From assembly GCA_021849745.1 (NCBI GenBank), contig JAJZSN010000003.1, positions 891-64,890 of the forward strand: a stretch of DNA of 64,000 nt, given 5' to 3'. This stretch comes from Bacillota bacterium. GTDB lineage: Bacteria > Bacillota > GCA-003054495 > Carboxydocellales > JAJZSN01. The notes below the pieces were generated by a model, which saw only the letters and a list, made by a program, of their open reading frames with translations, did no database searches and was not told where the DNA came from. The translations under genes were made by a program, and so were the position numbers. How positions within the stretch are numbered: the stretch's first letter is position 1; each line of letters starts with the position of its first letter. This document shows positions 7,117 to 9,519 of the stretch, piece by piece.

Positions 7117-9519
7117 TTACTGACTTTCGTATGAATATTCTATAAAGGTATTTCGGTAAACAGTAAATTTAGCCCAGCTAGGCAACCCTGGATATGGAGC
7201 GTTACTAGGAGCTCCTTCGGTGCAATTCTGTGGCTCGTAATTACCGTTTTTATTGTATGAACCAATATCTATTACAGGTTTGAAAGAAGCATCCGTGGCT
7301 AGGTGCTCTGGGAAGTATACTGTCTGGTTCTTTGGATTGATATGTTTGACTCGCAACCGTTTTATGTGCTTTTTGTTCAAGCTTGTGACATAGTGGAGTG
7401 TAATTTTATCTCCTAGCCCTTCTCGATTAATGTAATATTCCAGTCCTGAGTTTGGCAGCATTTCTCCGGCATAACCCCATAGTCTTGCTGTGGGATCGTC
7501 GCCGTATAATTGGTTGAAAATAGCTATGGGATCTTCTCCCTGGGTCTCATTTACCATAAATACACCCACGACAGGTGGCTTATTCGAGTCATTGCTAAAG
7601 CCTTCCCGCACATAAATGTAGTCCAATTCATCACTTGGAAACATTTGATGGGCAGCTATGTTGCTAACCAGTTTCCATTCATCACCTGTTGCAGGATCGT
7701 TGATGGTGGTGGGTACATTGCTGTGTGCCAAGAGGTATCTTTGAATTTTGATTCCAGTAATACCCCATGTGACTTCAGGTTGTACGTAGTTTTTAGAGGC
7801 CGCATATTCTTTAAATGCATTCTCAAGCTTATTTTTCCTGGCAGTGGTGGAAGCTAGCTGCCATATGGGAATGAGCCCATTTTTTCCGAAATCACTAATA
7901 CCCGGTTCTTTCTGCAAACGGTTGAACCATTCGTTAAAGGCAGACGGGTCAAGGTCGGTTCCCCCATAAGCGGGGTATGCTTTAACATTTCGCTCGCTGT
8001 TTGAGTAAAAACTGCTACTTGCTTCTTTTTTGCTGGATGACACCGACACCCCTGCAGAGGCAAAGAGGGTGTTAAAGGCGGCTTTGGTATCAACCTCTAG
8101 GCTACTTTCTGTTTTATAGTATGTGCTGTTTGCAGAAGCACTGTATTCCAGTCTTCCACCCATGTGTAGTGATTTAAGGATATGGGTACCATAAGTTTCG
8201 AACAACTTAACCGGATCCATTTTGTCGATGTCGTTTTTAAAGGAAGTGGTCATATAGTCCATAAGGTTGAGGTTCTGATTGTCTAAATACAAACGATATT
8301 TTAATGCCTCATAAATCAGGGTGGCATATGAACGATTCTTTTCAGTTAGGGTGCTTGAACTGAAATTTGTGCTGACGCTACCGCTGAAGAAAAGGTAGTT
8401 TCCACTGGCACCCACCCGGGTGGCCAATTGTTGAGAGTAGGAGGAAGCACTATTGCCCTCTACATAACGACTATCGCTATTACTTCCATCAATTTTATAG
8501 ACCTTTCCACTGTTCAATAGTTTTTTGATATCAAGTACATAATATTCAAGGCCCGACTCATCAGCGTATTTGCTGGTGATGATATTGTAGCCCCGGCCTA
8601 GATGTTGTACTCCTGCAAGGGCTGAATCTGTATTTTTCAAAGGAAAACCTGGAGATTCGGTAGAGCCATCTACACCAGGAAAGGGAATTTTTGGTGCGAT
8701 TTTGAGCATAGGATCAACAGTGATCTTTACACTAGATGAAGTTCCTTTTTTGTTGGGGTTATCAGCGGGTACAATTTTATTTAAGGCAAAGTTTGGCGAA
8801 ATATCTTTAGGAGCAATCGTCGGTGCTAAGGTGCCTTTGCCTGATTTGGCAACATAAGTGCGTTTAAGTAGGATGATTGCCTGTTCACGGGTGGTATTAT
8901 TAAGGGGAGATATGTTTTTAGTTGAAGTTCCCTTCATAATATTATTCTTATATGCAAATTTCATGGCATCAAGGGCCCATGAAGCAATATGGGAGGCATC
9001 ATCAAAGGGGAAACTCCCATCGGTACTTTTGTCGATATCCGGTTTAGCAGCTGTCAGGCCACGTAGAATCATCACAGAAATTTCCTGACGGGTAATATTT
9101 AAATTCGGGGAAAACTTGTCAGCACTTATTCCTTTGACGATACCCAAACCATAAGCCTTAGCTACCTCTGTATTCGTGGTATCATTAAAGGGCATATCCA
9201 CTGCCACTGCTTTTTTGCCAGAAAGCTTTTCGTATAATTTTACCGCAATTGTAGAGAATTCTTCCCGCGTAATTGGTTTCTTAAAGTTATTTTCGATGTT
9301 GTCGTATGTAAGCTCATATTGAAAGGCTTCAATAAGTTCTTTTACCGCCCAATCACTCTGTGAACCGTCGAAGTCAAGTTGATGTTCAGGGGTTAATTGT
9401 GCAATTTTTGGAGGTATAAGATTAATGTTGGGAGAACTAGCAGAGACCGGTGTAGAAATAATTAATACCAATACTAGCGTCATACAAAGAAGGAATTTTA
9501 ATTTAGTTTTCATTAACAC
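7117..9519 (-). CDS. Secreted SLH-anchored MACPF (perforin-like) protein with a C-terminal beta-prism-like domain
   Basis: Signal peptide ending ...PVSASS. Three SLH repeats (FDGSQSDWAV..., FNDTTNTEVAKA..., FDDASHIASWAL...). MACPF signature YGTHILKSLHMGG, encoded at 8155-8199. The C-terminal ~210 aa begins WGITGIKIQ. Confidence 0.8.
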   Translation of the reverse strand: MLMKTKLKFLLCMTLVLVLIISTPVSASSPNINLIPPKIAQLTPEHQLDFDGSQSDWAVKELIEAFQYELTYDNIENNFKKPITREEFSTIAVKLYEKLSGKKAVAVDMPFNDTTNTEVAKAYGLGIVKGISADKFSPNLNITRQEISVMILRGLTAAKPDIDKSTDGSFPFDDASHIASWALDAMKFAYKNNIMKGTSTKNISPLNNTTREQAIILLKRTYVAKSGKGTLAPTIAPKDISPNFALNKIVPADNPNKKGTSSSVKITVDPMLKIAPKIPFPGVDGSTESPGFPLKNTDSALAGVQHLGRGYNIITSKYADESGLEYYVLDIKKLLNSGKVYKIDGSNSDSRYVEGNSASSYSQQLATRVGASGNYLFFSGSVSTNFSSSTLTEKNRSYATLIYEALKYRLYLDNQNLNLMDYMTTSFKNDIDKMDPVKLFETYGTHILKSLHMGGRLEYSASANSTYYKTESSLEVDTKAAFNTLFASAGVSVSSSKKEASSSFYSNSERNVKAYPAYGGTDLDPSAFNEWFNRLQKEPGISDFGKNGLIPIWQLASTTARKNKLENAFKEYAASKNYVQPEVTWGITGIKIQRYLLAHSNVPTTINDPATGDEWKLVSNIAAHQMFPSDELDYIYVREGFSNDSNKPPVVGVFMVNETQGEDPIAIFNQLYGDDPTARLWGYAGEMLPNSGLEYYINREGLGDKITLHYVTSLNKKHIKRLRVKHINPKNQTVYFPEHLATDASFKPVIDIGSYNKNGNYEPQNCTEGAPSNAPYPGLPSWAKFTVYRNTFIEYSYESQ

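Follow-up and report, generated by a model that had tools for sequence, protein, structure and literature searches.

A MACPF protein with S-layer-homology repeats and an unmatched C-terminal domain encoded by a Bacillota bacterium

The gene, its promoter and its regulator

The window (the whole 64 kb stretch of DNA analyzed here) carries a gene whose product, as read from the translated sequence, begins with a signal peptide and three S-layer-homology (SLH) repeats, continues through a linker rich in Pro to a MACPF domain, and ends in a C-terminal domain (CTD) of 219 aa (Table 1). This five-part architecture had been proposed in an original prediction made from the sequence, and it is borne out by profile HMMs, alignment and the predicted fold. 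Translation probably begins from an ATG at 9513, two codons inside the GTG frame, which has a GGAAG ribosome-binding site 7 nt to its 5' side and gives a product of 798 aa that is 100% identical to the 798-aa database protein P0001. The 800-aa frame is intact and relatives conserve it over its full length, which rules out a pseudogene or a chance ORF.

Table 1. Features of the SLH-MACPF locus, in window coordinates.
Feature	Position	Strand	Residues or length	Basis or remark
Bidirectional intrinsic terminator hairpin	7015..7052	.		in the gap between guaA and the MACPF gene, which converge
SLH-MACPF-CTD coding sequence	7117..9519	-	800 aa	maximal ORF from GTG at 9519; stop codon 7117-7119
CTD	7120..7776	-	582-800 (219 aa)	AF2 model; family-specific alpha/beta domain
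MACPF domain	7777..8628	-	298-581	Pfam, phmmer, Foldseek on AF2 model
TMH2 candidate	7999..8130	-	464-507 (44)	AF2 secondary structure
MACPF signature	8155..8193	-	443-455	regular-expression match
TMH1 candidate	8332..8454	-	356-396 (41)	AF2 secondary structure, pLDDT
Linker	8629..8844	-	226-297	alignment and composition
Three SLH repeats	8845..9378	-	~48-225	Pfam and hhalign
Signal peptide	9439..9519	-	1-27	read from sequence; without lipobox
Two 16-nt direct repeats	9582..9618	-	16 nt each	21 bp start to start
AraC-family regulator	9680..10471	-	263 aa	directly upstream, same strand

The SLH-MACPF gene forms a monocistronic unit of low GC that has a terminator of its own. The terminator hairpin is flanked by an A-run and, on the opposite side, a U-run, and its RNA fold (-24.6 kcal/mol, z = -7.2) was equaled in stability by none of 200 shuffles. 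At the other end of the unit, the two direct repeats, AGCA(G/A)TATTGCGCCTT, abut a -10-like GATAAT (9574-9579) and lie ~65-105 nt upstream of the ATG. No third exact copy occurs in the window, where five copies with three or fewer mismatches were observed vs. 0.9 expected, and the genes of the relatives have no such repeats upstream. Repeats of this kind, as read from the sequence, are a candidate site at which an AraC-type activator could bind. Sequence reading revealed both the promoter repeats and the terminator, which were verified afterwards; a generic scan for sigma-70 promoters and terminators over 6800-10900 performed no better than on shuffled sequence.

The neighboring regulator had been described as an AraC/PAS protein. 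The AraC half of that description holds, with a double AraC-type HTH recognized by both PF12833 (E 1.6e-18, 67.2 bits, cut-off 33.6) and PF00165 (E 9.4e-17, 61.1 bits, cut-off 26.6), while for the PAS half the N-terminal domain is only weakly PAS-like (PF00989, residues 31-146, E 0.0077) at 16.7 bits, below the cut-off of 22.6. The MACPF gene had also been assigned to an AT-rich patch. GC3 is indeed 0.39 in both the MACPF gene and the regulator gene, vs. 0.57-0.62 in the flanking genes, but this is not unique within the window, since several other genes have an equal or lower GC3. Pairing with an AraC gene is seen at the window locus only and is absent at the loci of relatives, which are flanked by unrelated housekeeping genes and share no conserved neighborhood, immunity gene or second component. 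Their sole recurrent neighbor is a small Cu_amine_oxidN1 protein, and none adjoins the window's gene.

In the nearest genomes the order orf3709-hpt-guaA is conserved and the MACPF and AraC genes are missing beside guaA, a pattern compatible with insertion of the pair; neither an integrase nor repeat boundaries turned up around it, and Rfam and tRNA scans returned nothing near the locus. The nearest GuaA proteins come from a Carboxydocellales MAG (81%) and an Eubacteriales MAG (80%), followed by Desulfitobacterium, Dehalobacter and Desulfosporosinus at ~70%, and it is only by inference from such neighbors that the producer can be called a Gram-positive anaerobe, as it originally was. An anti-phage (gasdermin-like) reading was rejected because PADLOC gave no match for the MACPF protein or the regulator and because the protein is exported.

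Anchor, MACPF core and C-terminal domain

The N-terminus has the appearance of an export signal, with a K-rich n-region, a 17-residue hydrophobic core (FLLCMTLVLVLIISTPV) and a VSA|SS cleavage-type site, all by sequence reading, and a comparable hydrophobic N-terminus is present in 18 of 18 aligned relatives. The SLH region is recognized by PF00395 (E 2.8e-20, 72.4 bits, cut-off 20.8), with two repeats passing singly. Comparison of the repeats by hhalign gave E 3.7e-11 for the second and third and 1.5e-5 for the first and second; the first and third match weakly (E 0.004) yet in register, the first repeat being divergent. Each repeat bears a TR(E/Q)E motif (ITREE, ITRQE and TTREQ), and the three tandem SLH repeats that had been predicted are thus present, with a TRAE-type motif in each. 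A direct sequence match of the region to the solved Sap SLH structure (3pyw) was insignificant (E 0.51). The block is kept in 16 of 18 relatives, and no second SLH protein is encoded within the window.

A signal peptide, a triple SLH block with TRxE-type motifs and a passenger make up the layout of Bacillota SLH proteins such as B. anthracis Sap and exoenzymes, except that the passenger here is a MACPF domain. By analogy with these proteins, the triple SLH block is presumed to serve as a non-covalent cell-wall anchor. The flexible linker that follows is 15% Pro, poorly conserved and different in length among relatives (P0013, which carries fn3 domains, has ~300 additional linker residues), and it closes with a conserved GFPLK motif immediately before the MACPF core.

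This placement bears on the suggestion, raised in the original prediction, that the pore is directed at the producer itself, for programmed lysis, mother-cell lysis or release of its contents. Regulated expression via a dedicated sensor-regulator would suit such a developmental switch. The protein is, however, exported and anchored outside the peptidoglycan, and a ~1-MDa ring should not cross the wall; moreover, no holin, autolysin or sporulation gene adjoins it, and the relatives lie in unrelated housekeeping contexts. A self-directed pore is therefore very improbable.

The MACPF domain is matched by PF01823 over residues 379-572 (E 1.1e-15, 58.8 bits, cut-off 21.5), with profile positions 2-214 of 214 covered. 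Among PDB sequences, phmmer returned GNIP1Aa (3.5e-19), Mpf2Ba1 (4.3e-19) and Plu-MACPF (7.9e-15), in alignments that end at residues 571-581. The AF2 model of the whole protein (pLDDT 81.5, pTM 0.51) matches 8b6u (5.2e-23), 2qp2 (1.4e-21) and 6fbm (2.1e-19) in Foldseek; after the Mpf toxins come BT_3439, TgPLP1, perforin, MPEG1, C6-C9 and the CDCs, and perforin, MPEG1, C6-C9, PlyB and the CDCs all have E <= 1e-5. The predicted model, in other words, retrieves essentially every MACPF/CDC structure, Mpf toxins first, and it contains the bent central beta-sheet with two helical inserts that characterizes the fold. The MACPF assignment had been staked on a profile hit or structural match and is supported by both, with Plu-MACPF and BT_3439, the two structures first put forward for comparison, among the matches.

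The signature YGTHILKSLHMGG corresponds to the MACPF motif Y/W-G-T/S-H-(F/Y)-x6-G-G, as quoted in PMC2954219, with Ile rather than Phe/Tyr at the fifth position. Y443, G444, T445, H446, G454 and G455 are unchanged in 18 sequences, so that the signature noticed in the original prediction proves to be invariant. On either side of it lie the two Ser/Thr-rich stretches that had been suggested as membrane-inserting hairpins, here termed the TMH1 and TMH2 candidates, at the insert positions expected for the MACPF/CDC fold. Both lack Pro and are rich in Ser/Thr/Ala/Gly (51% and 50%, respectively, vs. 30% in the whole protein). The TMH1 candidate is a helical, low-confidence insert between strands of the central sheet and aligns with the corresponding part of Mpf2Ba1 in phmmer; the TMH2 candidate has a peak beta-amphipathic moment of 2.41, vs. 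1.89 for the 95th percentile of the whole protein.

The conservation of these elements is relevant to the possibility that the MACPF-CTD unit is a non-lytic surface protein, acting as an adhesin or as an oligomerizing S-layer or envelope element that forms no pore. SLH proteins of ~800 aa often belong to the S-layer or the envelope, and the NCBI annotation of the relatives goes no further than 'S-layer homology domain-containing protein'. Some members of the MACPF superfamily, moreover, are not known to lyse membranes, and BT_3439 is not known to form pores. Against this, the signature, the glycine pair and two inserts of TMH length are kept across relatives at 36-53% identity, and the invariance of the signature and glycine pair in 18 sequences points to purifying selection on the pore machinery. 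The gene also has a low GC3 and, in contrast to a gene for a major S-layer protein, is apparently under regulation and not constitutive, and the family is patchy and rare. A non-lytic role is thus unlikely.

The CTD had been thought to resemble the beta-prism/MABP modules of other bacterial MACPFs, a resemblance that could not be upheld. Modeled on its own, the domain is predicted with very high confidence (pLDDT 93.7, pTM 0.90), yet Foldseek found no match for this model in the PDB (best E 0.49, TM <= 0.18) and no fold match in BFVD. Structures 8b6u, 2qp2 and 6fbm are present in the PDB library yet fall outside the best 50 CTD matches, all with E >= 0.49, whereas in the same library Plu-MACPF, Mpf2Ba1 and GNIP1Aa did match the whole-protein model. 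At the sequence level, the CTDs of the window protein and seven relatives gave no Pfam family at E <= 10 except three unrelated one-offs (E >= 0.049), and a CTD profile returned nothing from PDB sequences at E <= 10. The predicted domain is thus neither a recognizable beta-prism/MABP module nor, for purposes of class membership, the beta-prism or beta-tripod C-terminal domain of the Mpf class. Since the arrangement of domains in the whole-protein model is uncertain (pTM 0.51), a membrane-facing placement of the CTD cannot be claimed. It is presumed to be a target-recognition module and, judging from the model, is a candidate for a new receptor-binding fold.

Relatives and characterized MACPF proteins

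The combination of MACPF domain and CTD is rare, comprising ~30 proteins. It occurs in 11 of 185,579 species-representative genomes, all of them uncultured anaerobic Bacillota MAGs that come, judged by isolate names, from anaerobic bioreactors and sediments. An alignment-based (A5) search of genome contigs yielded 12 loci; a search with a single MACPF+CTD sequence gave 40 pattern matches and no relatives. Of the protein searches, the profile search with MACPF+CTD was shallow (18 matches), and the informative one was the index-free search of cluster representatives, in which 1,558 clusters at 50% identity matched the MACPF+CTD query at E <= 0.001. Among them are proteins that carry BACON domains at the N-terminus, as well as Bacillota proteins bearing SLH or Cu_amine_oxidN1 modules, which indicates that the Bacteroides, Photorhabdus and Chlamydia proteins originally listed as the known bacterial MACPFs give too narrow a picture. 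A CTD profile recovered just two fragments (P0264 and P0265) from a set of 5.8 billion proteins, a weak negative because even the parent proteins were missed.

Among relatives the N-terminal module may be SLH, Cu_amine_oxidN1 or absent, while MACPF domain and CTD are kept and the CTD is invariably C-terminal to the MACPF domain. A swapped N-terminal module and a CTD that always follows the MACPF domain fit a layout of anchor, effector and targeting domain. In another product of the window a Cu_amine_oxidN1 domain is joined to a solute-binding protein, which supports the view that this domain serves these bacteria as a generic extracytoplasmic tether. In the literature searched, MACPF was never combined with 'S-layer homology', the sole co-occurrence of MACPF and SLH was in an unrelated plant-immunity review, and 'bacterial MACPF' and Firmicutes were not combined, nothing relevant being found among the listed papers on MACPF and Firmicutes. 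The union of SLH repeats, MACPF domain and unmatched CTD is therefore real, rare and undescribed in the literature searched, and the view that an SLH tether on a MACPF protein is unusual is supported.

To our knowledge, the characterized bacterial MACPFs are soluble, secreted proteins of Gram-negative bacteria, namely the insect toxins of Photorhabdus, Pseudomonas and Chromobacterium and the BSAP and CSAP antibacterials of Bacteroidota. The closest to the window protein is Mpf2Ba1 of Pseudomonas (8b6u, 8b6v, 8b6w), an insecticidal protein that is its best fold match and, by E-value, level with GNIP1Aa as its best sequence match. In both, an N-terminal extension precedes the core and an accessory domain follows the MACPF domain; the TMH1 regions can be aligned, and S322 here aligns with the 'switch' Ser54 of Mpf2Ba1. 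The two share just ~19-20% identity. Mpf2Ba1 is soluble, comes from a Gram-negative aerobe and has the insect midgut as its known target, and its propeptide of ~25-30 residues stands in place of the ~297 residues of signal peptide, SLH repeats and linker found here. The HMMER alignment begins at residue 29 of Mpf2Ba1 and residue 298 of the query, which indicates that anchor and linker replace the propeptide, whose removal by gut proteases is needed for oligomerization and pore formation (PMC10344926). Mpf2Ba1 ends in a beta-prism of 147 residues with DLN metal sites (PMC10344926), in contrast to the 219 residues without a fold match in the window protein.

Plu-MACPF (Mpf1Aa1; Photorhabdus luminescens, 2qp2) likewise has a MACPF domain followed by a C-terminal domain, but this is a beta-prism (MABP-like) unmatched by the window CTD, and there is no wall anchor. 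GNIP1Aa (Mpf3Aa1; Chromobacterium piscinae, 6fbm), the top PDB sequence match over residues 348-581 and also a fold match, is insecticidal, lacks SLH repeats and ends in a beta-tripod that the CTD-only fold search did not retrieve. BSAP and CSAP-1 are MACPF proteins of non-pathogenic bacteria that are able to kill other bacteria (PMC13245386). The window protein has a weak match to the BSAP5a model (NF053771, E 3.8e-11), and at 42.4 bits against a cut-off of 500 it is not a member of that family; in contrast to it, BSAPs are secreted in free form by diderm bacteria, lack SLH repeats and have other C-terminal regions.

Proposed function and significance

The reading that we favor, at a probability of roughly 0.6, is that the gene encodes a secreted pore-former of the MACPF/perforin superfamily displayed on the producer's own cell surface. 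Most likely, it would be a regulated, wall-displayed pore-former acting against foreign membranes, with the wall shielding the producer and the CTD picking the target. Expression would probably be switched on by the adjacent AraC-type regulator via the two 16-bp promoter repeats. The SLH repeats would bind the secondary cell-wall polymer non-covalently and so hold the protein on the outside of a thick wall of the Gram-positive type. Such a wall would separate a 12-22-mer MACPF ring from the producer's membrane, and for this reason no immunity gene would be needed. The CTD may recognize a lipid, glycan or protein on the foreign membrane; in Mpf toxins this targeting role is played by the beta-prism, in perforin by the C2 domain and in CDCs by domain 4. 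Membrane-bound monomers would oligomerize to a pre-pore, and TMH1 and TMH2 would unfurl as a beta-barrel. Since anchor and linker sit at the position of the cleaved Mpf2Ba1 propeptide, release or activation is likely to come from proteolytic cleavage of the linker near the conserved GFPLK. Against the pore-former reading stands the prospect that a protein never released from its tether could be impeded in assembling a ring.

The target may be diderm bacteria or archaea living nearby in dense anaerobic consortia, an assignment for which we would give somewhat less than even odds; bacterivorous eukaryotes are slightly less favored. Action against a grazer or host would take the form of a 'booby trap', in which the wall-bound toxin is inert until a protist or invertebrate eats the cell, whereupon digestive proteases would cut the linker and the freed MACPF-CTD unit would perforate the phagosome or gut membrane. 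It is plausible in that the nearest characterized relatives by sequence and predicted fold (Mpf2Ba1, GNIP1Aa and Plu-MACPF) are insect-active, that Mpf2Ba1 requires N-terminal cleavage by gut proteases, as in the rootworm gut (PMC10344926), at exactly the position occupied here by anchor and linker, and that a tethered toxin naturally acts just on the organism that engulfs it. The similarity to Mpf toxins is, however, confined to the MACPF domain at ~20% identity, and the C-terminal domain that defines their target is unrelated. In addition, insects are absent from the anaerobic bioreactors and sediments that the isolate names of the carriers indicate, where protist grazing is possible. Such a defense is a minority reading, although a serious one.

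Under the favored reading of a wall-displayed pore-former, a wider and more speculative proposal can be made. The protein could stand for an undescribed class of surface-displayed perforins in anaerobic Bacillota, with a swappable anchor (SLH or Cu_amine_oxidN1) and a targeting domain of new fold, used as a contact-dependent or ingestion-triggered weapon against diderm bacteria, archaea or grazers, with the wall as immunity. This proposal is tentative and rather less probable than not; if true, it would provide a Gram-positive, perforin-based counterpart to contact-dependent inhibition.

A wall-held MACPF protein poses the question of how a ring-forming toxin spares its producer without an immunity protein, and whether it serves in contact-dependent killing or as a storage depot freed by proteolysis, for which the Mpf2Ba1 propeptide offers a parallel. 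The CTD, with its 219 residues confidently predicted yet unmatched, poses the question of the partner that it recognizes. Because the N-terminal anchor has been swapped while MACPF domain and CTD have been kept, the family amounts to a natural experiment in pore-former delivery. Ultimately, as the carriers are uncultured and belong to communities of the anaerobic digester and sediment type, a protein with the predicted properties could matter for antagonism in consortia of practical importance.

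A MACPF protein with an S-layer-homology module

By profile, motif and predicted fold, the SLH-MACPF protein of the window is a member of the MACPF superfamily. Its residues 379-572 align with the whole 214-position Pfam MACPF profile (E 1.1e-15; 58.8 bits, cut-off 21.5), and the signature YGTHILKSLHMGG lies at residues 443-455. Across 18 relatives that are only 36-53% identical to the window protein, the Y, G, T, H and GG of this signature do not vary. When all solved structures were searched with phmmer, four significant sequence matches were obtained, namely GNIP1Aa (6fbm, E 3.5e-19), two entries of Mpf2Ba1 (8b6u, E 4.3e-19; 8b6v, E 1.7e-18) and Plu-MACPF (2qp2, E 7.9e-15), with perforin-like protein 1 and complement C6 next at lower scores. 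Residues 290-800 were modelled with AlphaFold2 from a 16-sequence family alignment (mean pLDDT 81.5), and in a Foldseek search the model retrieved Mpf2Ba1 (E 5.2e-23), Plu-MACPF (1.4e-21), GNIP1Aa (2.1e-19) and, in fourth place, BT_3439 (3.4e-11) from the PDB. Further down the ranking are TgPLP1, perforin, MPEG1, pleurotolysin B and C6/C8/C9, and the cholesterol-dependent cytolysins come last. The original prediction of a MACPF domain, proposed from the signature, is thus borne out by Pfam, phmmer and Foldseek alike, including the comparison with Plu-MACPF and BT_3439. It had also placed Ser/Thr-rich hairpin candidates beside the signature. In the model, the central sheet is broken by two helical or low-confidence inserts, residues 356-396 and 464-507, which lack proline, consist of 50% Ser/Thr/Ala/Gly as opposed to 30% in the whole protein, and look as expected of TMH1 and TMH2.

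The reading frame behind the 800-aa product described originally is uninterrupted. An ATG at 9513, two codons after the GTG, is the likelier start, because a GGAAG ribosome-binding site lies 7 nt ahead of it and its 798-aa product matches P0001, the copy of the protein in a large protein collection. Read from the sequence, the N-terminus is K-rich, with a 17-residue hydrophobic core followed by VSA|SS and no lipobox, and it reads as a Sec signal peptide. The SLH module that had been proposed is bona fide (Pfam E 2.8e-20, 72.4 bits against a curated cut-off of 20.8). Two of the three repeats in the region pass Pfam, and profile-profile comparison across the family relates all three (R2-R3, E 3.7e-11; R1-R2, E 1.5e-5; R1-R3, E 0.004, in register), each repeat featuring a TR(E/Q)E motif.

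The C-terminal domain and proposed mode of action

The C-terminal domain (CTD, residues 582-800) had been likened to beta-prism/MABP modules, and this likeness was not found in any sequence or fold test. For the CTDs of the window protein and seven relatives, Pfam gave nothing at E ≤ 10 apart from three unrelated one-off matches (E ≥ 0.049), and a CTD profile of eight family members had no match at E ≤ 10 among PDB sequences. The phmmer alignments to Mpf2Ba1, GNIP1Aa and Plu-MACPF all stop at residues 571-581, before the CTD. Modelled alone, the domain is predicted with high confidence (pLDDT 93.7, pTM 0.90, all five models at least 93), and Foldseek comparison of this predicted structure with the PDB (best E 0.49, TM ≤ 0.18) and with viral predicted structures returned no match. 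The PDB library includes the Plu-MACPF and Mpf2Ba1 beta-prisms as well as the GNIP1Aa beta-tripod, and the two-domain model recovered each of these chains; none is among the 50 best matches of the CTD alone. Furthermore, the CTD has 219 residues with two helices, whereas the beta-prism of Mpf2Ba1 is all-beta and has 147 residues (PMC10344926). Together with the lack of matches, this led to rejection of the beta-prism/MABP assignment. By sequence searches and predicted fold, the CTD has no detectable relatives outside its own family. Such lineage-specific accessory domains are normal among MACPF proteins, as with D2 and D3 of BT_3439, which are restricted to the closest homologues of that protein (PMC2954219).

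Since the C-terminal beta-prism or beta-tripod that defines the Mpf pesticidal class was not found, the window protein falls outside this class in the strict sense. Its score of 42 bits, where the BSAP5a model requires 500, excludes it from that family as well. The pore-forming step is probably like that of Mpf and BSAP proteins; a non-lytic structural or adhesive role appears unlikely.

SLH modules hold non-covalently to the secondary wall polymer of Gram-positive walls, so the protein should be exposed on the outer side of the peptidoglycan. Since a ring of 12-22 MACPF subunits would be unable to pass through the wall, the producer would need no immunity gene to protect its own membrane; none was seen next to the MACPF gene. 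A self-directed role is very improbable. To our knowledge, in every MACPF/CDC protein studied so far the membrane is chosen by an accessory domain that follows the pore-forming one, which makes the conserved, family-specific CTD the best candidate for a target-recognition module.

Activation may involve proteolysis. Mpf2Ba1 oligomerises only after loss of its first 25-30 residues, which sterically block the subunit interface (PMC10344926). The HMMER alignment begins at residue 29 of Mpf2Ba1 and residue 298 of the window protein, in which the place of that N-terminal segment is taken by the signal peptide, SLH module and linker. Thus, it is plausible that a cut near the conserved GFPLK, within the Pro-rich and poorly conserved linker, would release and activate the pore-forming part. 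Alternatively, the linker of about 70 residues and reversible SLH binding could permit assembly on a touching membrane. Judging from what is known of these protein families, we favor a wall-displayed pore-former aimed at foreign membranes, with a probability of roughly 0.6. The proteins closest to it in structure are active against insect cells, and the habitat suggests prokaryotic neighbours or protist grazers as targets. If the protein is such a pore-former, we lean slightly toward prokaryotic targets; antibacterial precedents among MACPF proteins are BSAP and CSAP-1 (PMC13245386).

Genomic setting and neighbouring genes

The hairpin between the MACPF gene and the convergent guaA is flanked by an A-run and a U-run and should therefore terminate both genes. 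On the other side lies the regulator described earlier as AraC/PAS. Its AraC-type helix-turn-helix is confirmed, while its N-terminal PAS match is below the Pfam cut-off and this part is unproven. AraC-type activators classically bind direct repeats that overlap the -35 position and are separated by two turns of the helix, and the two 16-nt repeats ahead of the MACPF gene, of which the 64 kb window has no further exact copy, are a candidate operator of the adjacent regulator.

The AT-rich patch noted previously is evident in GC3, which is 0.39 for the MACPF and AraC genes, 0.57-0.62 for the flanking genes and 0.50 on average in the window (sd 0.10). The two genes look like a small accessory insertion, because in the nearest genomes, where the orf-hpt-guaA block is conserved, neither follows it, and because relatives of the MACPF gene lie in unrelated housekeeping surroundings with no AraC neighbour and no such repeats upstream. 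No mobility genes or insertion boundaries were found around the pair.

One sub-clade of the relatives has, 30-60 bp upstream of the SLH-MACPF gene, a gene whose product is about 240 aa long. This protein, 81-87% identical between MAGs, starts with a leader, followed by a Cu_amine_oxidN1 domain and a shared C-terminal region (about 115 aa); in an Anaerovoracaceae MAG, a version of 386 aa in which this C-terminal region recurs (E 5e-10) lies directly downstream. The neighbour may be a partner, chaperone or co-anchor of the SLH-MACPF protein, and the window's gene has no neighbour of this type. At one locus, in a Peptococcia MAG (L093), the partner and SLH-MACPF genes give overlapping tblastn segments in different frames, which could reflect frameshifts, pseudogenes or long-read assembly errors. 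Elsewhere in the window, a solute-binding protein fused to Cu_amine_oxidN1 suggests that this domain is a general extracytoplasmic tether in the organism.

Other features of the window are an AbiEi-like protein (PADLOC AbiEi E 1.7e-59; Pfam DUF6088) near a DUF6904 protein (E 5.6e-87), a split methyltransferase and a riboswitch. L088 likewise has a DUF6088 gene, situated about 840 bp downstream of its MACPF gene, probably by coincidence. The methyltransferase ORFs, whose GC3 (0.24-0.27) is lower than that of any other ORF in the window, are probably one gene, frameshifted or degraded, from a mobile restriction-modification element. As the aptamer overlaps the mechanically called start of the next ORF (22997), the true start must be further downstream.

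Features of the window and Cu_amine_oxidN1 neighbour genes at loci of other genomes that carry relatives of the MACPF gene (L numbers)
Feature	Position	Strand	Details
SLH-MACPF ORF	7117..9519	-	uninterrupted, 800 codons from GTG
Bidirectional terminator hairpin	7015-7052		-24.6 kcal/mol, z = -7.2
AraC-family regulator	160 nt upstream of MACPF gene	- (same as MACPF gene)	263 aa; HTH_18 E 1.6e-18
Two 16-nt direct repeats, AGCA(G/A)TATTGCGCCTT	9582-9597, 9603-9618		21-bp spacing; abut -10-like GATAAT
AbiEi-like antitoxin-type protein	377-871	+	low-GC left end of window
DUF6904 protein	1153-1923	+	low-GC left end of window
Purine riboswitch aptamer	22959-23060	+	Rfam RF00167, 79.8 bits; purine-biosynthesis cluster
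C-5 cytosine DNA methyltransferase, split	57465-58082, 58063-58482	+	profile positions 56-194, 209-323
Cu_amine_oxidN1 (N-terminal) + ABC-type solute-binding protein	59857-61278	+	473 aa; E 1.7e-39; GC3 0.39
Permease, after the fusion gene	61285-62964		
Cu_amine_oxidN1 neighbour (about 240 aa or 386 aa)	L088 4653-5402 (= L090 3286-4032)		
Same	L004 7240-7950 (= L091 3232-3939)		
Same	L099 316-1038		
Same	L093 about 3288-4036		
Same	L001 10465-11625 (= L092 6568-7725)		
Partner + SLH-MACPF genes	L093 about 3288-6512		overlapping segments

Distribution of the family

With residues 290-800 as query, an index-free HMMER search of 1.84 billion cluster representatives matched 1,558 clusters at E ≤ 0.001, 723 at E ≤ 1e-10 and 38 at E ≤ 1e-30. 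Local HMMs for the three parts of the protein, run on 172 retrieved proteins, located the CTD in about 30, each time directly C-terminal to the MACPF domain and preceded by a triple SLH, a Cu_amine_oxidN1 domain (P0015, P0016, P0127, P0156) or only a short leader. A family-motif scan of one genome from each of 185,579 species, which do not include the window's own organism, found the MACPF+CTD module in at least 11, a lower bound since only two motifs were scanned. All 11 carriers are uncultured Bacillota MAGs (Peptococcia, Peptococcaceae, Anaerovoracaceae, Oscillospiraceae, Tissierellia, Sedimentibacter, 'Clostridiales Firm_18' and one unclassified Bacillota MAG), and the isolate names AnMBR and AS21ysBPME suggest anaerobic reactors. 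The MACPF+CTD module is rare, and by these searches the SLH-MACPF-CTD whole is confined to rare, uncultured anaerobic Bacillota.

For the window's organism, a Gram-positive anaerobe is plausible because its GuaA is closest to proteins of a Carboxydocellales MAG (81% identity), a Eubacteriales MAG (80%) and Desulfitobacterium, Dehalobacter and Desulfosporosinus (about 70%). NCBI taxonomy (taxid 3120407) files Carboxydocellales, class Thermincolia, under Actinomycetota and Peptococcia under 'Bacteria incertae sedis'; with GuaA neighbours otherwise from Bacillota, this filing looks like a quirk of taxonomy, not biology.

In the literature searched, no description joins MACPF with S-layer homology, the sole co-occurrence of the terms being an unrelated plant-immunity paper. 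A known effector is combined here with a known anchor in a way that this literature does not describe. Three SLH-MACPF proteins (P0144, P0148, P0159) have a different C-terminus in place of the window-type CTD, and farther MACPF relatives bear Cu_amine_oxidN1 or N-terminal BACON domains. Among P0157, P0199, P0266 and P0270 are five or six N-terminal BACON repeats, beta/gamma-crystallin with Cu_amine_oxidN1, and Listeria-Bacteroides (Flg_new) repeats. Because other MACPF proteins bear such varied outer modules, surface-tethered MACPF proteins may be a wider theme.
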